Shown here in pieces: positions 6,555 through 63,448 of a stretch of 64,000 nt of DNA. The notes beneath the pieces are model-generated. The model searched no databases. It had not been told where the DNA came from and worked only from the letters and a program-made list of their open reading frames with translations. Within the stretch, counting starts at the first letter, position 1; each line of letters begins with the position of its first letter. Made by a program: the position numbers and the translations under genes. This stretch comes from Candidatus Parcubacteria bacterium (GTDB lineage Bacteria; Patescibacteriota; Minisyncoccia; Phycocordibacterales; JAACPR01), in NCBI GenBank assembly GCA_039805545.1, contig JBDLUA010000001.1, positions 566 through 64,565 of the forward strand, read 5' to 3'.

Positions 6555-7784
6555 TTGACTTTTTATACACAAATTGAGATACTGCTTGATATGAATTCAA
6601 AAATAAGAACACAACTTTTTGGTGGAATATTGCTTGCTATTGTACTTTCATTTGGTATGGGGTTTTATATTGGAAACGGCGGAATATCTTTTCGGTCTAC
6701 ACAAGCAAGTGAAGATGTAGACATGGCTCCTTTTTGGAAAACATGGAATATATTAAATGAAAAATTTGTTTCAGCATCTACTACTAAGCAAATTTCTAAT
6801 CAAGAAAAAGTATACGGAGCAATTAGCGGAATGGTCTCGTCACTCGGAGATCCATATACTGTATTCTTTACCCCAGAAGAAAAACAAAAATTTGATGAAT
6901 CAATCGAGGGTACCTTTGAGGGGGTAGGAATGGAAGTAGGAATTAGAGATAAAGTGCTTACAGTTGTTGCACCTCTCAAAAATTCTCCTGCAGAAAAGGC
7001 TGGAATTGAAAGTGGGGATATTATTGTAAAAATTGATGAAAAGGATTCTCTTAATATGAAAGTGGAAGAGGCAGTTTCTTTGATTCGTGGTGCAAAGGGT
7101 ACAATGGTAACTCTTACAATACTCAAAAAAGATGCAGAAAAACCTGTTGAAATAAAGGTAATGCGAGATAAGATTATTGTTCCTACCATCGAGACCGAAA
7201 TTATCAATACTACTTTTGTTATAAGACTATACAGTTTTGGAGCAACATCAGAATCAGAATTTAAGACCGCAATTGAACAATATCAAAAATCAGGCAAGAA
7301 GAGATTGATTATTGATTTAAGAGGGAATCCAGGTGGATATTTTGATTCAGCAGTTGATATTGCAAGTTGGTTCTTACCTGCAGGAAAGACTATTGTCACA
7401 GAGGACTTTGGTTCAAATATTACTCCAAAAATATTCAGAAGTAAGGGATATAATGTTTTTGATTTAAATAAAAATAAAATGGTTATCCTTATTGATGAAG
7501 GTTCTGCATCTGCCTCCGAAATCCTTGCTGGAGCATTGCAAGAACATGGAGTTGCAAAATTAGTAGGAACAAAATCTTTTGGAAAAGGATCAGTTCAAGA
7601 GTTGATAGATATCACAAAAGATACTGCTCTTAAAGTAACAATTGCACGATGGCTTACTCCAAATGGAAAATCTATTTCTGCGGGCGGCCTTGCGCCTGAT
7701 TATGAGGTTCAATTTGATGCGGATAAGTTTAAGAAACATAACGAAGACCTACAGTTGCAAAAAGCGCTTGAATTATTAAAATAA
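6555..7784 (+). CDS. ctpA: carboxy-terminal processing peptidase (S41 family, Tsp/CtpA-like)
   Basis: PDZ domain (GIESGDIIVKIDE) and S41 catalytic region (DLRGNPGGY, GSASASEILAGALQ). Confidence 0.85.
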   Translation: MTFYTQIEILLDMNSKIRTQLFGGILLAIVLSFGMGFYIGNGGISFRSTQASEDVDMAPFWKTWNILNEKFVSASTTKQISNQEKVYGAISGMVSSLGDPYTVFFTPEEKQKFDESIEGTFEGVGMEVGIRDKVLTVVAPLKNSPAEKAGIESGDIIVKIDEKDSLNMKVEEAVSLIRGAKGTMVTLTILKKDAEKPVEIKVMRDKIIVPTIETEIINTTFVIRLYSFGATSESEFKTAIEQYQKSGKKRLIIDLRGNPGGYFDSAVDIASWFLPAGKTIVTEDFGSNITPKIFRSKGYNVFDLNKNKMVILIDEGSASASEILAGALQEHGVAKLVGTKSFGKGSVQELIDITKDTALKVTIARWLTPNGKSISAGGLAPDYEVQFDADKFKKHNEDLQLQKALELLK

Positions 7785-56077: not shown

Positions 56078-56204
56078 ATTTTTAATTTGTTTAATCTGAT
56101 TTTATGCAAAAAGATTGACCTAAGTTCTATTTATATTTTTGCATATTCACTATCTAAAGCCTACTCCTTTAGAAAAAATAATCAAATAAATTAATATTCT
56201 CGAC

Positions 56205-56400
56205 AGGACTTGACCCACAGGTACTAAGCTCACTGCGTCGCAAGCTCCTTGTTCACTAAGTACTGTTGGGTCGCGGCTCGGCCATCCCAGATCTGCTTCA
56301 CTCCGTTTCGCAGATGCAGGGGCCCTAGGCCTCCGCCGTTCAACTCCTGCGGATTCCACTAAAAATCAAAAACCGAAATGCATTCGCATTTCGGTTCTGA
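56205..56400 (+). ncRNA. candidate GC-rich small RNA (~190 nt), strand and class uncertain
   Basis: GC-rich island between a -10 TAATAT (56192-56197, weak -35 TTAGAA) and a bidirectional hairpin terminator at 56371-56406. The 5' CAGGACUUGAC can pair with the 3' GUUCAACUCCUG. There is an internal local hairpin CCCACAGGUACUAAG / CUAAGUACUGUUGGG. The annotated 69-aa minus ORF is not protein-like. Confidence 0.35.
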
Positions 56401-56487: not shown

Positions 56488-58377
56488 CTAATCTTTCCAT
56501 TTTTCAAGTAAGTTTATAGTTTGACTTATTGGCTGATTCTTCTTACTTTTAATTTCACCAACTTTCACAACAACTGGGATTTGAGCCAATAAACCTGCAA
56601 TTATACAAGTCCCTCTAGCAAGATTAGGTATAGAATCAGCAGAAACTTTATCTAAATATGCGATTGTTTTTTCGACCGCAAACAAATCATTATTGTTAAT
56701 TAGTCTATGTAAAAAATAATTATGAAGTTGAGATATAATTGTTGATGATATGTCCGAAGGTCTTTGACTTGAAATAGTTAGAAAAGTATCAAACTTACGA
56801 CCCTCTTTTATAATTTCTTCAAAGGTTTCGAGACGGTAATCTTTCCATTGTTCGCTCTCTCTTTCTGAATTAGAAGACAGTATATTATGCGCTTCATCAA
56901 TAATTAGATGAAGAGAGCTTTCATTGTTCTTGCTTTTCTTTTTTGTATCATAAAGTTCCTTTGATATAAGAAGAGGGAGCATCTTTCTTATGTCGAGATT
57001 CACATCTTTCAGTGAGATCACTGTTAAATTCTTTGTAAATCTAACCCCTCCTTTTACATAGAGAACCTTTTCTAAATCAAGTACTCTTTTTTCCATTCTT
57101 TTGATTAGAGGAGATAAATGTTCCCTATTTGAAAATCCTCTAATCATTTCATCATAATATTTAACGATGATTCTTAATCCAATTTTTTTAATCTCAGATA
57201 AATTTGAAATGTTCAGATCTCTGACCAAACTTATTTGATCATTTATTTTTTCTTTAAATGCAGGCTTATCGCTAAAAATCTTATCATTAGGTGAAGACTG
57301 ACTAGTTTTTAAATAAAAACTGATGTTATCATTTCCTCCTGAAAGATTTTCCTTAAAATAATGTCCCATCTTTCGCAAACTATCATTATTCAGAAAAGAT
57401 GCTAGTTCATATAACAAATCTACCGTAAGAGCCCTATCTGTATTTTTCCCACTTACCGCTGTAGCTTCAATAATTTTTTCTGCAACCAAATTCTTAAAAT
57501 TTTCTTCTGTATTCAATCTAGATTCAATATAGGAATCCTTAATAGCTCTATTTATAAAAGGGATTTGAGTTTTTTCTGTTGCTTCAAGAAAAATGCCCCA
57601 AAAGGAACTATCTTTTAAGGTTTCTTTTTTAATTGGGAATTTGTCTCCTTCTGTCACTAAATCTGTTGAAAGTTTATATATATTTTTATATTTTTTCTCG
57701 ATAATAACATCATCACCAGCATATTCTCCATTAAAATCAATAAAGAAAAATTTTGCTCGATTTTTGAAGTTTGTATTATCTTTAAATTTTTTAAAAAGTT
57801 CTCGATATAATTTTGTAAGTGTGTAGGATTTTCCACTTCCAGTATTACCAAAAATTCCTATATGACTAGCGAACAAACTATTGATTCCTAAATCAATAGT
57901 TTGTCCATCATCATATTCCAATGTTCCTATCGAAATTCTTTCATCTCCTTCTTTAATAAAATTATGTATTTCTTCAAACTCTTCTTTTCTTAGTAAAAAA
58001 CATTTATTATCTATGAGAGGGAGTTCCTTGATCCCCCTGTAAAACACACTATTTTCGATAAAACCAAGAATTTTTATACTAAGAATTCTGTTTATCTTCT
58101 CCTGATTGTTTCGATACTTATTTTTTGAAAAATCCTTATCCTCTGTAATCGATTCTCCTTCAATTTTCCCAATCATTTCAGAAAAACCCTTCTTTATCTT
58201 TATGTACCCACCTACGGAGATGTTTTGAATAAGAGCACCTTTATAGAGAACTGAGGATGTATTTTTACCCTTATCAACTTTTACTTTAATAATTTGTCCT
58301 TCAACAGAAAAAACTACCCCTATTCTAAAAATTGAATTATCAACAATATAAGTATCGGTCGTATTATGGTTATTCAT
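56488..58377 (-). CDS. herA: HerA-like (FtsK/HerA superfamily) ATPase, partner of SIR2 in a SIR2-HerA defense pair
   Basis: Walker A GIFGNTGSGKSYTL and Walker B LHLIIDEAHN. It is about 630 aa and overlaps the upstream SIR2 gene by 8 nt. Confidence 0.7.
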   Translation of the reverse strand: MNNHNTTDTYIVDNSIFRIGVVFSVEGQIIKVKVDKGKNTSSVLYKGALIQNISVGGYIKIKKGFSEMIGKIEGESITEDKDFSKNKYRNNQEKINRILSIKILGFIENSVFYRGIKELPLIDNKCFLLRKEEFEEIHNFIKEGDERISIGTLEYDDGQTIDLGINSLFASHIGIFGNTGSGKSYTLTKLYRELFKKFKDNTNFKNRAKFFFIDFNGEYAGDDVIIEKKYKNIYKLSTDLVTEGDKFPIKKETLKDSSFWGIFLEATEKTQIPFINRAIKDSYIESRLNTEENFKNLVAEKIIEATAVSGKNTDRALTVDLLYELASFLNNDSLRKMGHYFKENLSGGNDNISFYLKTSQSSPNDKIFSDKPAFKEKINDQISLVRDLNISNLSEIKKIGLRIIVKYYDEMIRGFSNREHLSPLIKRMEKRVLDLEKVLYVKGGVRFTKNLTVISLKDVNLDIRKMLPLLISKELYDTKKKSKNNESSLHLIIDEAHNILSSNSERESEQWKDYRLETFEEIIKEGRKFDTFLTISSQRPSDISSTIISQLHNYFLHRLINNNDLFAVEKTIAYLDKVSADSIPNLARGTCIIAGLLAQIPVVVKVGEIKSKKNQPISQTINLLEKWKD

Positions 58378-59455
58378 CTATTTCAGGTATTAAAGGAGGT
58401 TTTAATGCAAAACACTCATCTCCAGTGATAGTAATTTTCTCAAATATCTCAGTATTCAAAGTCTCAAAGTTATACTTTTTTCCTTCTTCGGGAAGAATAA
58501 TTTTTATATTCTTATTTTTTGCGCTTTCTTCCATTTTTTGATAAATATCACTTTTTGTTTCATGAGCAAAAATATAAACTTTTAATGTTGGATTAGAACC
58601 AGCAACTCTCATAGTTAAATCTCGTATGTGCTCATCCTCAAAGGAAAAACCCATTACGAACAGAACACTGTTTTCCTTTTCTAACTCATTTGAATAAATT
58701 CTTAATAAATCATAATAGTACTGTCCAAGTAAAGTTACTTCGAATTTCTCTTTTGTAGGATTAACGATATTAAGATCCTTGTACTTTTCTTCAAACTGAA
58801 TAGTGTTTTTATAATTTTCAATCTCTTTTACGAGATCAAGATCTTTATCAAGATATATTAGATCTTTATTGTTTCCCTTTGTAAATTTCCAGGTTAAAGA
58901 TCCATGAATTTTTAATATATTAAACACAGGAATTTCAGATGTATTTTCATAATGAAGACTTTTCTTGAAGTAAGATTTTTTAAAATTTCCAAGATCAAAT
59001 ATTGGATTAAATCTACCATTAAACCCATCATTAAATTCAACACCAGTCTCTTCGATTGCCTTTTCTGAGAAAATATCAATATTTGTAGTGAAAATATTAA
59101 CTTGTTTTGTAAGTAAGGAATTTTCTCTCCTCAAAACAATATTGTTCAAGAGTCTGTAAAAGTTTCTGTAATTATCTAGCACAATATCCTTATTTGAATC
59201 CACATCTCCATTTAATATTTTTAAGTTACCCAACATCACAACATCAAAAAATTCTTTTTTCTTCTCCAAAATTTCTTCAGGGGTTTTTGTCTTATCAGAA
59301 AGAAAAACTTCAATTCCATTTAACACATTAAGGAAGGGTCTAGAAAGACCTGAGCCAAACAAGAAGTTAATGTTTGCACTGTCTATTGTTTTTCGGATTT
59401 CTCCGATTAGGGCTGTCTGATTAGGCATAAAAAGATTATGCAATATTTTTTTCAT
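58370..59455 (-). CDS. SIR2-family (sirtuin-like NADase) protein of a SIR2-HerA defense pair
   Basis: FLFGSGLS (GAGIS-like), FTTNIDIF (TQNID-like) and KIHGSL (catalytic HG) motifs. Confidence 0.7.
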   Translation of the reverse strand: MKKILHNLFMPNQTALIGEIRKTIDSANINFLFGSGLSRPFLNVLNGIEVFLSDKTKTPEEILEKKKEFFDVVMLGNLKILNGDVDSNKDIVLDNYRNFYRLLNNIVLRRENSLLTKQVNIFTTNIDIFSEKAIEETGVEFNDGFNGRFNPIFDLGNFKKSYFKKSLHYENTSEIPVFNILKIHGSLTWKFTKGNNKDLIYLDKDLDLVKEIENYKNTIQFEEKYKDLNIVNPTKEKFEVTLLGQYYYDLLRIYSNELEKENSVLFVMGFSFEDEHIRDLTMRVAGSNPTLKVYIFAHETKSDIYQKMEESAKNKNIKIILPEEGKKYNFETLNTEIFEKITITGDECFALKPPLIPEIDE

Positions 59456-59593
59456 TTTTTCAATATGGATATTTGTTTCTAAAACGCCTAAATAAGAATT
59501 CCCTTTTAAAACTAATGTGTTAAAATATGAAAGACAACCGAATATTCCGAAGACCTAACCCTACTAAAGCAATTTACTAGGTATGGTCAAAAT

Positions 59594-59636
59594 CGCGTTC
59601 AACATAAAAAACCCATCATTTAGGGCGTTGAACGCG
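59594..59636. promoter_or_regulatory. perfect 10-bp dyad CGCGTTCAAC-N23-GTTGAACGCG in the divergent intergenic region, a candidate operator
   Basis: It lies between the SIR2 start (59455) and the plus-strand operon start (59722). Confidence 0.3.
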
Positions 59637-59721
59637 TTGCATCGGGAAACTGATGTAGGGGTCCTCGGACTCTCCTAGTGGTGGGCTTTTTGTTTACTAC
59701 TAGGACAATTGATTTCATTTT

Positions 59722-60165
59722 ATGAATACAATAAGTACCAAAGGAATACTTGATCACGAAATACTCTCTTTTAAGAACTATCTTAATTATAAGTCAGAAG
59801 CACACAATCAGATATCTTCTAGAATTTTCTGGAAACTCTTCTATAAAAAGTATAAAAAATTTGTGTGGTTCCATGATGGAAAAATATATAAGATAAGTAC
59901 AAGCCCTTTCGAAATGTATGAATTAAATACGGAGAGAGAATCTATATTTTTATCTAGAGAAACCTTAGAAAAACAAACATTCAAAATTACTATTCTACTT
60001 ATACTCTTTATATTGTTTATATTACTAAGAATACCCCAGGATTCTTTATTTGTATTAGAAAAGTATTATCCTTTGAGCATTTGGGGTTTACTATTATTTG
60101 TTTTTATATCTTTTAAAATACCTCGATTGATTTATAAGTTTAGATTTAAGATATTAAAAAAATAA
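59722..60165 (+). CDS. hypothetical protein with a soluble N-domain and two C-terminal TM helices
   Basis: 147-aa, first gene of a tightly packed plus-strand operon. Confidence 0.4.
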   Translation: MNTISTKGILDHEILSFKNYLNYKSEAHNQISSRIFWKLFYKKYKKFVWFHDGKIYKISTSPFEMYELNTERESIFLSRETLEKQTFKITILLILFILFILLRIPQDSLFVLEKYYPLSIWGLLLFVFISFKIPRLIYKFRFKILKK

Positions 60166-60166
60166 C

Positions 60167-60514
60167 ATGTCTTCCCTATCCTTTTGCGAGTGCAATAAAT
60201 GTGGGTTCTTAGTAAAAAACTCTTTTGGATTTCCATATCACAAAAATAAAGAGAATAATGAAATAACCTTTCTTACAATTCCTGTTGGTACAGAAGTACA
60301 AAATTCAGGGACGATAACCGGATACAAACACTCACTATATTGCAAAAAGTGTCGGGATTATAAAGATTTATTTTTTGATACTGATCAGAGAGAAAAACCA
60401 TTTGTGTGCCCAACATGTAATGAACCTGGTAACTTCTTAAATCCTCAAGATACATGTCCCCATTGTAATGATGGTGTAATGGAAATAAATGGAAGTTTAC
60501 AAGTATTATTTTAA
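60167..60514 (+). CDS. double zinc-ribbon protein
   Basis: CxC..C / CKKC / CPTC / CPHC motifs. It starts 1 nt after the previous stop. Confidence 0.45.
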   Translation: MSSLSFCECNKCGFLVKNSFGFPYHKNKENNEITFLTIPVGTEVQNSGTITGYKHSLYCKKCRDYKDLFFDTDQREKPFVCPTCNEPGNFLNPQDTCPHCNDGVMEINGSLQVLF

Positions 60515-60842
60515 TTTTATGAAAAAAACAAAAACTCAGAGAAATATAAGTGCAATCATATTTTTACTTTTGCTCTTAGTGATATCAATAAGAAGTAGCT
60601 TTATGCCTCAAGGTTTTGGGTATTTATTAGGTCCCCTGATTCTCACATATCTTTTCTGGTTCTTATTACATAAGTCTGCAAAAATAAAAAAAGATTTGAT
60701 GAGAGTACCACTATTGATATTTTTTTCTCTATGTTTTGGAGTGGTCTTAGCTCAAGTTGTTGGTCTAGATTCTGTATTTGCACTTATCTTCACGGGCATA
60801 ACAATGATTTATATATTTAATAAGAAAGTAAATAATGATTGA
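60489..60842 (+). CDS. hypothetical 4-TM membrane protein
   Basis: It overlaps the upstream gene by 26 nt. Confidence 0.4.
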   Translation: MEVYKYYFNFMKKTKTQRNISAIIFLLLLLVISIRSSFMPQGFGYLLGPLILTYLFWFLLHKSAKIKKDLMRVPLLIFFSLCFGVVLAQVVGLDSVFALIFTGITMIYIFNKKVNND

Positions 60843-61080
60843 GATAATAAAAACATACTTCCTCACCTTCTTTTACTTCATACTTGTATTGCCAAGATTC
60901 TTTCTTGCATTAGCATTACTCGTTACCCCCTACTGGTTAGCAACATTTGCAATAGATTACTTATTTCAAACAAGCGTAGGAGCAATAACTTTAATTCTCT
61001 GGATGTATTTGTTTTTTAAAATGCAGGAAGAAGATCATTGGTACCCAAGACTTATACATAAAGTAGCCCCTTTTCTATAG
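60835..61080 (+). CDS. hypothetical 2-TM membrane protein
   Basis: It overlaps the upstream gene by 8 nt. Confidence 0.35.
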   Translation: MIEIIKTYFLTFFYFILVLPRFFLALALLVTPYWLATFAIDYLFQTSVGAITLILWMYLFFKMQEEDHWYPRLIHKVAPFL

Positions 61081-61084
61081 AGAT

Positions 61085-61630
61085 ATGAAACAAACACAAA
61101 GAACAGAATATTTTGAAGTATTGGGAGAAAGATTTTCAAAGATACACTATCCTGAGCTTTATAGCATGTACAAAATCTCTCCAAAGAATCTTGAGGTTCA
61201 ACTCTCATCTCTTGCAGAAAAGTGGCACAATGGGAGCATTAACTCAGCTTCGCGTTGTTTTGAAAGTGATCTTGAACAACTTACAGGAGCAAATACAAAA
61301 CTTGTTTGGCTACCAGATGAACTAAACAATTTATTTGGACAGGAAGTATATACTTTCAATCTTAAAGACAGGAACTCGTTTTGTGTTCGATCAAGCAAGC
61401 TATATCAGGCAGGTAAAAAACAAGATGATGATATCCAAAAGAAAAATCCCCTCCTAAAAAGAGGAGGTTTTTCTATGTTTGAAAAGCTTCACGCAAAGGC
61501 AGTAATTGATTCTGAAGGTATTTTAGAGGTATCAGACAGATATAAAGATATCTTTTCATACGATAAACCACCCTCTTTTGAAATAATAGATAAGAATTAT
61601 TTCATAGTACACTTTGATCATGAAAACTAA
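61085..61630 (+). CDS. hypothetical soluble protein
   Basis: 181-aa with no motifs. It starts 4 nt after the previous stop. Confidence 0.4.
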   Translation: MKQTQRTEYFEVLGERFSKIHYPELYSMYKISPKNLEVQLSSLAEKWHNGSINSASRCFESDLEQLTGANTKLVWLPDELNNLFGQEVYTFNLKDRNSFCVRSSKLYQAGKKQDDDIQKKNPLLKRGGFSMFEKLHAKAVIDSEGILEVSDRYKDIFSYDKPPSFEIIDKNYFIVHFDHEN

Positions 61631-62033
61631 TATTCAACTACCAAAAGAATATGCTGACATTTTTAATAGACCCTTAAATATCATTGAGGGTCCAAATAAT
61701 GCAGTGTTTTTATATACTCATGAACAATTTTCTGCTTTTTTAGAAAAGATATCTGAAAATAAAAACACAGATAGGAATATAGATTATTCAACTTTTAAAA
61801 GATTCAAAGATAGGGGTATCTATACAGGAACAGTTTCAGAAGAAGGTATCTTAAAAATTCCTGTAAATCTACAACTAATACTTAATGATGGAGAACTTAA
61901 TATAAAAAGAGGTCCTTATTGGGTTGAAATTCGCTATATTCACGAATTAAGTTGTCATTGTGATATCTTTATGTGTTCTAAATGTGTACATGGAAATTGC
62001 AAAGACAAGAATTGTAATATGCATAAATTCTAA
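61614..62033 (+). CDS. hypothetical protein with a possible AbrB/MazE-like swapped-hairpin N-region and a Cys/His-rich C-terminus
   Basis: KIPVNLQLILNDGELNIKRGPYWVEIRYI. C-terminal CHCDIFMCSKCVHGNCKDKNCNMH. It overlaps the upstream gene by 17 nt, and its stop overlaps the convergent gene. Confidence 0.35.
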   Translation: MIMKTNIQLPKEYADIFNRPLNIIEGPNNAVFLYTHEQFSAFLEKISENKNTDRNIDYSTFKRFKDRGIYTGTVSEEGILKIPVNLQLILNDGELNIKRGPYWVEIRYIHELSCHCDIFMCSKCVHGNCKDKNCNMHKF

Positions 62034-63448
62034 GGTGTTTCTTTTATTGCTATCTCAGCTAATTCTTTTAAATTCTCATTAGACCTTATTTCATCTAATG
62101 GAATTTTTAATGACTCAATTTCCTCAATTAAACGTTTTGCTGATTGAATTGATATTTTTTCTTTTAGATAACCAATCATTTCAAAATATTTTTGCTGACA
62201 TAATTTTATACGTAGTTTACTCGATATAATATCACTAAAAATCAAACCTATTGCATAAATAGACTGCCTTGGATTAAAGCCTTTTATAAGATCAAGATAT
62301 ATATCATTGGCAGAATTAGCAACACCATTTCCATTCGTTAAAAAAACTTCAACTAGAGTTGCTATATATTTTTGTTCTATTCCATTTGGTATTTTAGGGG
62401 GATTCCCCAAAACAGACCGCAACCTCTTTGCGGGTAAAACTTCATTATAAAAATTATTAAACTCGCCATGTGCATTTTTGAGCTCTTCAAGTATTGTAGA
62501 AACCTCAACTGTCCTATGAGGATCAGTAATATACTTAAGTCCATCCACTACGGCCAAAAATTCTTTAGCAAACCCTTTTTCTGCAATATTATTATTTGCA
62601 CTGAAATAAGCATGTTTTATACCTAATGACTTTCTTATATTTTCATCAACATAAGGCCACAATAATGGTGCTAAAAGTCTGATATTTTGCCTTACAGGTT
62701 CAGTTGTTTCTCTCTTGTAAAAAATACCAAAAAGACCCTCAGTTAAACGTTGAATAGGTTCTGGTCCCATTGCCGCAAAATGAACTGCAACATCTTTTGC
62801 ATCTTCTTTGCTCATTTCTGTGTTTTTTATATTTTCAAGCAATTTTTGAACTGCAATTGCAGCAGGAGGAATAGGTGTTGAAATTATCTCTCTTAAACAA
62901 TCTTCCGCCATTGATGTAAGCTTCAAGCCTGTTATTTTTAATTGATTAGGATGTGCCGCACTTGCATTATTTCTCATATATTTAATAAGATCTATATTCC
63001 TGTATCCTACTTCTGTTATTAAATCTATTTTAAGAGCACCTTTTAAAAGCTCATCATCAGTTAACTTGGAAATATCATCAATGGTTTTTAAGTCTTTTCT
63101 TTTTTCTGGAGAGGCAGCAATTTCATAAAAGTACTCCAGATCATAGACCTCGATTCTTTTTCTTAATTGAAGAATCGTTTCATCCCAAATATAGTTTAAA
63201 GCCGCATCAAACAAGCCGACACTCACTGCAGCAAAAAATTTAGAAATATAAACAGCTTGAAATTTTTGTTCTGGACTCATTTGAGCAAGTAAAGAACTTG
63301 CATTAGAAAAAAATATGGTTCTTTCTTTAATTGGCACGAATATATCATTGATGGGCAAACCAACACTCTCTAACAGTGACAGAAAATGCCCTTCTTTTGA
63401 TTCAAGCTCTTGATTGTAAGATATTACTTTTTTATTTTCTTTGCTCAT
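62030..63448 (-). CDS. large protein with a HEPN-like Rx6H motif (possible Abi-type RNase)
   Basis: RNNASAAHPN fits the HEPN Rx4-6H signature. It is 472 aa, predicted helical, and sits in the defense-island context. Confidence 0.4.
   Translation of the reverse strand: MSKENKKVISYNQELESKEGHFLSLLESVGLPINDIFVPIKERTIFFSNASSLLAQMSPEQKFQAVYISKFFAAVSVGLFDAALNYIWDETILQLRKRIEVYDLEYFYEIAASPEKRKDLKTIDDISKLTDDELLKGALKIDLITEVGYRNIDLIKYMRNNASAAHPNQLKITGLKLTSMAEDCLREIISTPIPPAAIAVQKLLENIKNTEMSKEDAKDVAVHFAAMGPEPIQRLTEGLFGIFYKRETTEPVRQNIRLLAPLLWPYVDENIRKSLGIKHAYFSANNNIAEKGFAKEFLAVVDGLKYITDPHRTVEVSTILEELKNAHGEFNNFYNEVLPAKRLRSVLGNPPKIPNGIEQKYIATLVEVFLTNGNGVANSANDIYLDLIKGFNPRQSIYAIGLIFSDIISSKLRIKLCQQKYFEMIGYLKEKISIQSAKRLIEEIESLKIPLDEIRSNENLKELAEIAIKETP

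Follow-up and report, generated by a model that had tools for sequence, protein, structure and literature searches.

The window, a stretch of 64,000 nucleotides from a Candidatus Parcubacteria genome, carries six co-oriented open reading frames that fill positions 59722-62033 of the plus strand, far more than expected by chance. These frames, henceforth referred to as ORF1 to ORF6, and the features around them are listed below.

56488-58377, minus strand: HerA (PADLOC, 1.5e-175)
58370-59455, minus strand: SIR2 (PADLOC, 1e-64)
59518-59526, plus strand: extended -10 promoter-like box, TGtTAAAAT, read from the sequence ~25 nt upstream of LOOT
59552-59673, plus strand: LOOT RNA (Rfam RF03000), 72.4 bits vs a gathering score of 46.4
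59552-59692, plus strand: LOOT RNA including its conserved 3' extension
59673-59705, plus strand: alternative 14-bp hairpin enclosing the U-tract between LOOT and ORF1, from a terminator-like scan
59722-60165, plus strand: ORF1, 147 aa
60167-60514, plus strand: ORF2, 115 aa
60489-60842, plus strand: ORF3, 117 aa as the longest frame; 107 aa from the ATG at 60519 in the public gene call
60835-61080, plus strand: ORF4, 81 aa
61085-61630, plus strand: ORF5, 181 aa
61614-62033, plus strand: ORF6, 139 aa as the longest frame; 137 aa from the ATG at 61620 in the public gene call
62030-63448, minus strand: 472-aa HEPN-like protein (phrog_27609, a widespread stand-alone family)

The original prediction gave spacings of 1, -26, -8, 4 and -17 nt for the six plus-strand frames, which is correct for the longest frames; with the public gene calls the spacings are 1, +4, -8, +4 and -11 nt. 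The final stop codon does overlap the convergent 472-aa gene, by 4 nt, as had been described. In 2000 shuffles, the combined length of the six frames was never matched; the longest ORF of a shuffle averaged 68 aa. Comparison of the window with orthologues from other metagenomes at 41-64% identity gave rough dN/dS values of 0.18-0.29, indicative of purifying selection, with pN/pS of 0.36-0.54 and codon-position identity in the order 2 > 1 > 3. A spurious-ORF explanation was rejected on the shuffle test, orthologue conservation and codon-position constraint. The six frames are genuine genes, coupled in translation, and their junctions are kept across unrelated contigs. All five public copies of the exact locus were identical, and loci L001-L004 were 100% identical to the window.

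Hydropathy profiles and motif counts reproduced the predicted features of the products: two C-terminal TM helices in ORF1, four CxxC motifs in ORF2, four TM helices in ORF3, a membrane protein in ORF4 and a Cys/His cluster in ORF6. ORF1 (family O1) consists of a ~90-aa soluble N-domain (FWKLFY..YK..VW...Y.I), the two TM helices and a basic C-terminal tail, IYKFRFKILKK. Its dN/dS is about 0.18-0.26, again with codon-position identity in the order 2 > 1 > 3, and its homologues are P0004 (59%), P0007, P0014, P0026 and the copy in locus L155. Such P-numbered proteins were found by an exhaustive HMMER search with a concatenated ORF query. ORF2 (O2, ~110 aa) carries four invariant or near-invariant CxxC pairs (C9/C12, C59/C62, C81/C84 and C97/C100), and the C-terminal Phe is invariant in its family. 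Conservation is weakest for the 4-TM protein ORF3, which L155 lacks; the sole homologue found for it is a 110-aa TM protein directly after LOOT in L160 (hmmsearch 2.6e-10). ORF4 (O4) is a small 2-TM protein ending in MQEEDHWYPRLIHKVAPFL, with homologues P0005 (96%) and P0032 (41%) and an L155 orthologue at 6e-27; nucleotide identity at its codon positions 1, 2 and 3 was 0.49, 0.78 and 0.47, respectively.

Searched singly against Pfam, PADLOC, PHROGs and NCBIfam, the six ORFs gave nothing significant, and tblastn of the six products against 50,697 phage records returned no match. In PADLOC-DB 2.0 the six ORFs and the 472-aa protein had 0 matches at E ≤ 1, with SIR2 and HerA as positive controls. 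No significant match came from sequence or profile searches of the PDB with O1, O2, the N-terminal domain of ORF5 (O5N) or the 472-aa protein; O2 also had no significant Pfam family, and a search of metagenome and viral collections for related O2 loci returned nothing. O1, O2, O4 and O5N define families unrecognised in Pfam, NCBIfam, PHROGs and PADLOC.

The original prediction stated that none of the products matches a recognisable family. This held for known defence, phage and housekeeping families but was too strong overall, because ORF5 and ORF6 are both MraZ-like. Residues 1-110 of ORF6 (O6) form an MraZ-like double SpoVT/AbrB-type domain, and an invariant cluster, C-x-C-x4-C-x2-C-x4-C-x4-C-x2-H, spans C112-H135 (61953-62024). 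The O6 family profile matched the MraZ structures 1n0e (E 2.3e-8, profile positions 9-113) and 9qlr, 9sx6 and 9qlg (about 5e-6), which bears out the swapped-hairpin-like region and Cys/His cluster proposed earlier. Pfam MraZ (PF02381) was matched by 5 of 13 O6 members, with a best value of 6e-6; the window ORF6 alone fell below its threshold. A Gal4-type Zn2Cys6 cluster was also considered for ORF6 and rejected, with only a weak match (E 0.02-0.04) and a spacing different from CX2CX6CX5-12CX2CX6-8C.

In ORF5, the O5N domain is a new domain of ~60 aa (residues ~5-66, 61097-61282; motif A..WH.G.I.SA....ESDL), and residues ~71-181 form an MraZ-like double domain without the Cys cluster. The paralogy of ORF5 and ORF6 was seen by hhalign, which aligned the MraZ-like cores (96%), and their 11-nt overlap in the window, CATGAAAACTA, recurs in L155 and L168. 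O5N is fused to MraZ-like domains in P0009, P0010, P0016 and P0057, to TM segments in ~10 proteins and to a Zn ribbon in P0035; P0013 is a receiver domain fused to an MraZ-like domain. A word-indexed search with ORF5 returned only itself, and a search for O6-related loci yielded a single short contig, from the metagenome collection, with no viral match. The single-sequence AF2 model of ORF6, at a pLDDT of 44, was unusable; the AF2 model of ORF5, built with an alignment, was confident in O5N and poor in the C-terminal half.

MraZ is the transcriptional regulator of the dcw cluster (mraZ-rsmH-ftsL...) and a member of the SpoVT/AbrB swapped-hairpin superfamily, with a DxxxR (DxxGR) motif conserved in each half-domain. 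ORF6 and the ORF5 core, which makes up the C-terminal two thirds of that protein, align with MraZ (PF02381; PDB 1N0E, 9QLR) over both half-domains, so that a DNA-binding oligomer is likely. Unlike MraZ, the first half of O6 begins at IQLPKEY with no DxxGR before it, and in the second half (SEEGILKIP) the Gly is kept and the Arg replaced (alignment A6). ORF6 further adds the C-terminal Cys6His cluster, a new architecture in combination with MraZ, and ORF5 adds O5N. Neither gene heads a dcw (mraZ-rsmH) cluster; they are neighbouring paralogues carried by a mobile element, with ORF6 next to ORF5 and the HEPN-like gene in the window and beside DUF3800 or terminase-like genes in other loci.

Antitoxins classically have the AbrB/MazE fold and Pfam labels MraZ "putative antitoxin-like", so the cassette was weighed as an addiction module in which ORF1, ORF3 and ORF4 would be membrane-damaging toxins and ORF5 and ORF6 antitoxin-repressors that stabilise the element. 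It resembles type II toxin-antitoxin systems with AbrB/MazE-fold antitoxins in being small, tightly coupled, located on a mobile element and equipped with AbrB-superfamily proteins, and in L161 and L167 MazE-like and HicAB genes occur close to genes that are O1-like or bear O5N. It differs in having five or six genes rather than two, membrane and Zn-ribbon partners, and candidate antitoxins that come last rather than first, and ORF1-4 match no known toxin family in Pfam, NCBIfam, PADLOC or PHROGs. The O5N-TM fusions suggest cooperation of soluble and membrane parts rather than neutralisation, and an addiction module is considered rather improbable.

Most of the divergent intergenic region between SIR2 and ORF1 is occupied by the LOOT RNA, which the original prediction had missed. 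LOOT is encoded on the strand of ORF1, 30-50 nt ahead of it, and matched the RF03000 model over its full length (positions 1-121 of 121, E 1e-13). The L155 LOOT scored 74.3 bits and is ~95% identical to that of the window, while between the two loci the dS of the LOOT-adjacent genes is 1.2-2.2 and synonymous sites are near saturation. In the 3' extension, which is kept in 60 aligned LOOTs, GTGGTGGG (59678-59685) is the pairing partner of CCCATCAT (59612-59619), and CTTTTTG (59686-59692) comes after GTGGTGGG. Covariation of this long-range helix was evident as 7.67 bp with the RNA's own hairpin vs 5.15 ± 0.12 bp with permuted partners. The hairpin at 59673-59705 is a possible expression platform; comparable enclosing hairpins were judged by eye to occur in several other LOOT loci. 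The sequence block around the -10 box is conserved between the window and L155 despite the near-saturated synonymous sites in the adjacent genes, and the box is a likely promoter for LOOT and, via read-through, for the operon. ORF1 starts 64 nt past the end of the LOOT pattern, and the median over 110 loci is 66 nt. Since read-through is deduced only from spacing, LOOT could instead be an independent sRNA. The Rfam entry describes LOOT only as an sRNA of unknown function, and the searchable literature holds a passing mention. A structured region at 56150-56360 was also evaluated as SRP RNA or tmRNA and had no Rfam support.

Gene order and junctions of the block are kept in the following loci.

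L155: LOOT-O1-O2-O4-O5-O6
L157: TM-O1-O2-O5
L164: LOOT-TM-O2-O5N
L165: O1-O2-[O6+O5N]
L166: TM-O5N-O6
L168: O5-O6

The O1/O2 junction of 1-2 nt is common to the window, L155, L157 and L165. LOOT lies upstream in 5 of 7 O1/O2-family loci, counting loci with upstream sequence, and is the real conserved partner of the cassette. Directly 3' of LOOT, the six genes represent one version of a conserved cassette that comprises the membrane protein O1, the four-CxxC protein O2, small TM proteins that vary, O5N and an MraZ-like protein bearing the Cys6His cluster. The block is conserved, is under purifying selection and maps to no housekeeping family.

Approximately 120 other LOOT loci were found, nearly all in CPR bacteria. 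A co-oriented ORF begins ≤120 nt 3' of LOOT in 100 of 110 independent loci, and 77 LOOT-following ORFs (~70%) have a TM helix vs 20% of control ORFs, a set that includes spurious ORFs. The slot holds hypervariable envelope proteins, superinfection-exclusion types included, and Ltp, Imm_superinfect, SNase and DndB are among its first genes in other genomes. The cassette itself is rare: the full O1-O6 block was present in 0 of 120 LOOT loci of GTDB representatives, with one weak O6-like match only, and the cassette was not found in IMG/VR. A LOOT DNA-pattern search of IMG/VR was discarded, as 26 of its 27 matches were due to chance, mostly in Streptococcus phages.

Serine integrases and terminase-like genes occur near LOOT loci, and the serine recombinase family of the window is present in 44 of 121 of them, alongside terminase-like genes. 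In the window, the cassette lies in the cargo region of a host element of roughly 10-11 kb in a Parcubacteria genome, with a backbone of LOOT ... RHH protein, a ~70-aa protein, a large serine recombinase and tRNA-Ala, in an order common to L158. The last two features, numbered on the identical contig L001, are as follows.

L001 14337-15908: 523-aa large serine recombinase with an N-terminal YCRVSTKEQ motif
L001 15826-15902: tRNA-Ala, in antisense overlap with the 3' end of the recombinase gene

The same antisense arrangement was found for 6 of 12 large serine recombinase genes checked at LOOT loci, and the region is best described as a putative integrative element with the recombinase at its end beside the attachment site. 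Long flanking repeats are not expected for serine recombinases; the search for direct repeats flanking the island gave only an unconvincing 16-nt near-match to the tRNA T-arm region.

The position of LOOT in this backbone, beside integrase and RHH genes, raises the question of whether the cassette regulates or maintains the element (lysogeny, excision, transfer or membrane anchoring) through MraZ-like repressors and confers no immunity. By similarity, ORF5 and ORF6 are DNA-binding proteins of the MraZ/AbrB type and could be mere regulators of the element itself; the homologue P0013 is a response regulator output domain, and the cassette abuts terminase-like genes in L165 and L029. A core function would be expected to be widespread, but the full block is missing from the 120 LOOT loci of GTDB representatives, where the slot holds unrelated genes. 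Candidate regulators (RHH and the ~70-aa protein) already lie beside the integrase, and three or four membrane proteins are left unexplained. Element maintenance is regarded as unlikely, albeit the likeliest of the rival readings.

The terminase-like genes near related loci also bear on another reading, in which a cryptic prophage of CPR bacteria would encode here its lysis functions, namely holin, antiholin and their regulators; the small 2-4 TM proteins have a holin-like size and a 126-aa neighbour in L029 gave faint Rz-like spanin matches (E 0.04). No endolysin or cell-wall hydrolase was found in or beside the cassette, the 25 commonest Pfam families of 110 LOOT-slot first genes include no catalytic lysin, and the window island has no structural phage genes, all of which leaves a lysis function very improbable.

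The neighbourhood is rich in defence genes in the window and at homologous loci, where PDC-S28, a type I S subunit and type IIG RM were identified. SIR2 and HerA are indeed present upstream on the other strand; the association implied by calling the operon divergent from them is not conserved. Neither was found near the homologous cassettes (L155, L157, L164-L166 and L168) or in 120 LOOT loci. The proposed HEPN motif of the convergent 472-aa protein was upheld: M-R-N-x2-S-A-A-H-P-N is invariant in 12 sequences from at least 5 phyla and contains R159-x6-H166, which fits the Rx4-6H motif of the HEPN superfamily, although the protein had no Pfam or PDB sequence match. Immediate adjacency, divergent or convergent, could suggest that the six genes are accessories or sensors of SIR2-HerA or of the HEPN-like gene. 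In L155, however, the SIR2-HerA position upstream is taken by a PDC-S28 helicase and the downstream side by DUF3800/HsdS, and in L165 the neighbours are a terminase-like gene and RM genes. The 472-aa gene is absent beside the operon in both, and its family stands alone across many phyla; PADLOC treats SIR2-HerA as a two-gene system that is complete by itself. The synteny data largely refute an accessory role of either kind, which is hardly credible.

Our leading reading, plausible but held tentatively from sequence comparison, is a LOOT-gated, membrane-coupled regulatory or phage-exclusion/abortive-infection-type cassette on a mobile element, with its own regulator. Transcription would start at the extended -10 box upstream of LOOT, and LOOT would act as a structured 5' leader whose covarying terminal helix and U-tract decide whether RNA polymerase enters the cassette. 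O1, O3 and O4 would insert in the membrane, and the O5N domain of ORF5 would couple these partners to an MraZ-type oligomer formed with the paralogue ORF6; this coupling role is proposed because O5N is fused to TM, Zn-ribbon and MraZ-like proteins in other genomes. The zinc-cluster MraZ-like protein would bind DNA as the regulatory output. An envelope-linked phage-exclusion or abortive-infection role appears the most likely one because of the envelope proteins in the LOOT slot and the defence neighbours, although a defence neighbourhood on a mobile element is weak evidence for such a role. Abortive infection in particular is something we purely infer, because no effector or sensor family was identified: ORF1-6 match no defence or effector family in PADLOC, PHROG, Pfam or NCBIfam, and no enzymatic or pore-forming effector was recognised among them. 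A bolder and doubtful extension is that LOOT works in cis, as a riboswitch-like or protein-controlled leader, to gate the hypervariable cargo slot of a widespread family of CPR elements that integrate at tRNA genes with a serine recombinase, and that the O1-O2-O5N-MraZ/Zn cassette is a new membrane-coupled anti-phage system acting by exclusion or abortive infection. Its signalling core would be O5N, as a new domain that tethers a zinc-cluster MraZ-type DNA-binding oligomer to small membrane proteins.

Prophage moron and superinfection-exclusion systems include Ltp of TP-J34, T4 Imm and lambda RexAB/SieB. The cassette is similar in placing envelope-located accessory proteins in a variable slot, and Ltp and Imm_superinfect occupy the same LOOT slot elsewhere; it differs in having no sequence similarity and in being a multi-gene block with MraZ-like regulators behind a conserved structured RNA. 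Analogies for LOOT are offered by P1/P7 c4 RNA, P4 CI RNA, HK022 put RNA and riboswitch-type attenuators. Like these leader and immunity RNAs, LOOT appears as a conserved structured RNA heading an operon on a temperate element, with a covarying helix beside a U-tract; unlike them, it shares no homology with any of the group. This locus and about 120 others show LOOT, a structured RNA with strong covariation, heading variable cassettes, mostly of membrane proteins, on CPR integrative elements, which turns an orphan RNA into a testable question of whether it is a leader or attenuator of mobile-element cargo. Even if the cassette only regulates the element, its MraZ-like/zinc-cluster/O5N triad would represent a new type of membrane-linked transcription control.

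To our knowledge, the mobile elements of CPR/Patescibacteria and their defence genes are poorly characterised, and a compact element with SIR2-HerA, a pan-phylum HEPN-like gene and the cassette is a tractable entry point to CPR defence. Small integrative elements and satellites of the P2/P4 type carry defence hotspots, and SIR2-HerA in the window and PDC-S28 in L155 occupy the same position, divergent from LOOT. The present elements differ from P2/P4-type hotspots in their CPR/Patescibacteria host, in a backbone of LOOT, RHH and a tRNA-integrating serine recombinase, and in having an RNA as the anchor. Gene fusions join the O1, O2, O4, O5N and MraZ-Cys6His parts in one functional network.

Six plus-strand open reading frames (ORF1 to ORF6) lie at 59722-62033, and their positions, lengths and spacings were exactly as given in the original prediction. 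Public gene calls for the same contig start ORF3 at ATG 60519 (107 aa) and ORF6 at ATG 61620 (137 aa), so that two of the overlaps become +4 and -11 nt. The run of open frames is not a chance product of this 30% G+C region, since none of 2000 shuffles attained its summed length (mean longest shuffled ORF, 68 aa). Hydropathy and motif counts agreed with the earlier description of the products as small membrane, zinc-ribbon, soluble and Cys/His-cluster proteins. Purifying selection was evident for each ORF in comparisons with the related loci L155 and L157, where nucleotide identity was highest at codon position 2, then 1, then 3, and pN/pS was 0.36-0.54. In the same comparisons dN was 0.26-0.53 and dS 1.1-2.2, giving a dN/dS of ~0.18-0.29 that is only rough because dS is near saturation. 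None of the six products maps to a housekeeping family, and the original prediction withstood all three of its own grounds for refutation (no conserved block, no purifying selection, housekeeping families). The six ORFs are thus firmly supported as real genes.

The six products were joined into a single query for an exhaustive HMMER search, and homologues were obtained for five of them. These comprised P0004 (59%), P0007, P0014 and P0026 for ORF1, nine proteins of ~110 aa for ORF2, P0005 and P0032 for ORF4, ~30 proteins matching the first 65 residues of ORF5, and ~12 proteins for ORF6; ORF3 matched only itself. The locus arrangements listed below were obtained by context look-ups and HMM annotation, with families O1 to O6 named after the ORFs, O5N denoting the N-terminal domain of ORF5 and LOOT the structured RNA family Rfam RF03000.

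Arrangement of related loci (TM, transmembrane)
L155: LOOT (74 bits), O1, O2, O4, O5, O6
L157: TM protein, O1, O2, O5 (contig end)
L164: LOOT (81 bits), TM protein, O2, O5N (contig end)
L165: O1, O2, O6+O5N fusion, then a convergent GP3_package terminase-like gene
L166: TM protein, 63-aa stand-alone O5N, O6, tRNA (947-1019, directly behind the O5N-O6 pair)
L168: O5, O6
L160/L159: LOOT (60 bits), O3-like TM protein, O1-like, weak O5N-like 110-aa protein; next, in L159, a 209-aa Zn-ribbon protein
L158: LOOT (80 bits), two other genes, O1-like

Versions of the predicted block were recovered in other loci, and junctions were kept as well: in four loci the stop of O1 is followed after 1-2 nt by the ATG of O2, and in three the 11-nt O5/O6 overlap, CATGAAAACTA, is retained. 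The cassette is firmly supported as conserved and LOOT-led. It is also rare; it was not found in IMG/VR, and a single weak O6-like match was present among 120 GTDB LOOT loci.

The earlier statement that no product belongs to a recognised family held for the individual sequences, as no meaningful match to any of the six was obtained in PADLOC, Pfam or NCBIfam, but it did not hold for the ORF6 family profile. This profile matched crystal and cryo-EM structures of MraZ across both half-domains (1n0e, E 2.3e-8; three others, ~5e-6), and Pfam MraZ was matched by 5 of 13 family members. In ORF5, residues 71-181 are paralogous to the MraZ-like core of ORF6 but lack the cysteines (hhalign 96%, E 2e-9), which firmly supports ORF5 and ORF6 as paralogous MraZ-like proteins. 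Behind the core, ORF6 carries an invariant cluster:

61953-62024: ORF6 cluster C-x-C-x4-C-x-K-C-x4-C-x4-C-x2-H, after the MraZ-like core

The profile match of this Cys6His cluster to the fungal Gal4 Zn2Cys6 binuclear cluster was weak and non-significant (E 0.02-0.04), and because the spacing differs a Gal4-type assignment is left unproven. The MraZ-like-Cys6His domain forms the output of a response-regulator receiver in P0013; it is also duplicated behind a TPR-like region in P0020.

O5N (ORF5 residues ~5-66; motif A..WH.G.I.SA....ESDL) was modelled by AF2 from 32 sequences as a beta-hairpin and three helices (pLDDT 95-98). It occurs alone in ~11 representatives, duplicated in L029, at the cytoplasmic C-terminus of proteins carrying 1-3 TM helices in ~10 representatives, fused in either order to MraZ-like-Cys proteins (P0009, P0010, P0016, P0056, P0057) and once fused to a Zn-ribbon protein (P0035). 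P0056 is a 448-aa multidomain protein combining MraZ-like-Cys6His and O5N. These fusions bring together what the window keeps on separate genes: a TM protein, a Zn ribbon, O5N and an MraZ-like protein. O5N is firmly supported as a new domain linking MraZ-like proteins to membrane proteins. ORF1 and ORF2 each form a family of their own with sharply conserved motifs and have no relatives in PDB, Pfam, NCBIfam, PADLOC or PHROGs; altogether, four cassette families and O5N lack a counterpart in Pfam, NCBIfam, PHROGs and PADLOC. Stand-alone 62-63-aa O5N genes were also present on two IMG/VR viral contigs (L153, L154) with very few long ORFs under code 11, which may be stop-codon-recoded phages.

Most of the 266-nt "divergent" spacer upstream of ORF1 is filled by a LOOT RNA, on which the searchable literature offers almost nothing besides strong covariation.

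59518-59526, upstream of LOOT: extended -10 box TGtTAAAAT, in a block kept between the window and L155
59552-59673, plus (operon) strand: LOOT RNA (RF03000), full model, 72.4 bits against a gathering score of 46.4
59612-59619 with 59678-59685, plus strand: long-range helix of CCCATCAT with GTGGTGGG, then CTTTTTG through 59692

Beyond the Rfam model, all LOOTs (the window copy and L032-L151) carry a conserved 3' extension ending in a U-tract, and the ~9 nt just ahead of this tract form a helix with the long hairpin's apical 5' strand. The contiguous helix averaged 7.67 bp with the RNA's own hairpin; when partners were permuted it averaged 5.15 ± 0.12 bp and reached at most 5.54 bp in 200 permutations. 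The long-range helix thus covaries strongly. This helix is in competition with the apical hairpin that RF03000 draws locally, which suggests a switch or pseudoknot. The window and L155 share ~95% identity over LOOT, although the coding genes have diverged (dS 1.1-2.2 against L155/L157). Only 30 nt separate the U-tract from the ORF1 start, too close for an independent ORF1 promoter. Together, the terminal helix, the U-tract, this short gap and the -10 box point to an operon that would be transcribed through LOOT, with the terminal helix and U-tract serving as an attenuator, so that LOOT may gate transcription of the cassette.

The window contig is 100% identical in four other assemblies, and a longer copy (L001) continues past the window end with a 247-aa ORF, an Arc/Omega-like RHH protein, a 70-aa protein and the following features:

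L001 14337-15908 (window-equivalent ~65421-66992, past the window end): large serine recombinase, 523 aa, 3' end antisense through a tRNA
L001 15826-15902: intact tRNA-Ala(TGC), overlapped antisense by the recombinase ORF

Reading antisense through the tRNA gives the recombinase the C-terminal peptide ...DPTGLEPAT..., and the housekeeping genes ddl, uvrC and uvrA follow. On the left, the HerA end adjoins a bidirectional terminator, succeeded by a rise in G+C and housekeeping genes. From these two flanks we infer that the cassette lies inside an integrated element of ~10-11 kb with a putative left boundary near 56.4 kb; that it is cargo of a serine-recombinase element is firmly supported. At the left edge of the island, 56150-56360 (minus strand) is GC-rich and strongly folded (MFE -92.8 kcal/mol, z -4.5 against shuffles), and 16 nt of it nearly match the T-arm region of tRNA-Ala. 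ARAGORN returned nothing there, nor did any Rfam family match even at E<=10, and the segment may be an unrecognised CPR structural RNA.

A degenerate-pattern search yielded more than 120 LOOT loci in a one-genome-per-species collection, nearly all in Patescibacteria/CPR, and one true LOOT (L029) in IMG/VR. When the surrounding ORFs were clustered, a large serine recombinase was found in 44 of 121 loci, typically ~2.3 kb upstream on the other strand, along with terminase small and large subunits and ParB-like, Rep-like and XerC-like genes. The recombinase ORF ran into a tRNA gene (Ala, Glu or Trp) in half of the 12 checked, as in L001, and L158 repeats the island order of LOOT, cargo, RHH, ~70-aa protein and recombinase. 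By this association and shared order, LOOT is a backbone feature of a tRNA-integrating element family. That the cassette regulates the element itself is a reading that we consider rather unlikely.

A co-oriented ORF began within 120 nt of the LOOT pattern end in 100 of 110 loci (median 66 nt; ORF1, 64 nt). At least one TM helix was predicted in 77 of 110 first ORFs and in 257 of 1270 other ORFs, a crude control set. Homology between any two of these first genes is almost never seen, and most of them have no Pfam domain, the few matches including Lipoprotein_Ltp, Imm_superinfect, SNase, DUF2726 and DndB as well as trypsin-like and zinc-ribbon proteins. The position next to LOOT is thus a slot for hypervariable cargo, with a bias toward envelope proteins. 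That the cassette serves in lysis is very improbable.

In the window, SIR2-HerA lies divergently upstream of the cassette, the predicted identities being upheld by PADLOC (1e-64 and 1.5e-175), and a 472-aa gene lies convergently downstream.

L155 3663-6113, minus strand: PDC-S28 candidate-defence helicase (PADLOC 1.4e-150), divergent from LOOT
62030-63448, minus strand: 472-aa protein of a widespread, length-invariant stand-alone family, phrog_27609

The L155 helicase occupies the place held by SIR2-HerA in the window, and this shared position suggests a defence hotspot anchored on LOOT. Downstream, the L155 cassette is followed by a DUF3800 gene and one for a type I S subunit; the neighbours in L165 are a DUF4365 protein and an RM enzyme (restriction-modification) of type IIG, and those in L029 are type I RM genes. 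In L029 (7208-11626), terminase-like genes run convergently to the cassette, which consists of LOOT, TM proteins and a tandem O5N protein and adjoins the type I RM genes. L166 and L029 are consistent with the same element family, and the cassette is repeatedly found within defence-rich mobile DNA. Between loci it retains LOOT and not its protein neighbours, which rules it out as an accessory of SIR2-HerA or the HEPN-like gene and leaves a role as accessory genes of neighbouring defence genes next to no probability.

The HEPN motif ascribed to the 472-aa protein was borne out, MRNxxSAAHPN being invariant and HEPN-like (Rx6H). PADLOC, Pfam and NCBIfam gave no meaningful match, the only one being phrog_27609 (function unknown). 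More than 560 family matches (43-74% identity) span at least five phyla, from Parcubacteria to cyanobacteria, Bacteroidota, Ignavibacteria and Chloroflexota, and the protein looks like an undescribed single-gene defence candidate itself.

No recognisable effector was found in the cassette, which, like its rarity, is a weak point of the interpretation. Its soluble and membrane parts could form a membrane-coupled regulatory unit, and its role may be exclusion or abortive-infection-like defence; this combined reading, with LOOT gating transcription, is tentatively favoured over the others considered. An addiction (toxin-antitoxin) module is improbable. The composition, which the original prediction called novel, corresponds to no described system with this set of parts, and none of the papers searched describes LOOT as connected with mobile elements and a variable slot for membrane proteins. 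The main value lies in opening LOOT function to testing and in providing a candidate system, both compact and clonable, from a clade that has been little explored.

Elsewhere in the window, 7482-7605 (minus strand) gave a borderline, partial match to Rfam Rp_sR47 (Rickettsia sRNA47; 61.7 bits against a gathering score of 60, model 34-157 of 316) and is probably not that sRNA but some conserved region, coding or otherwise.
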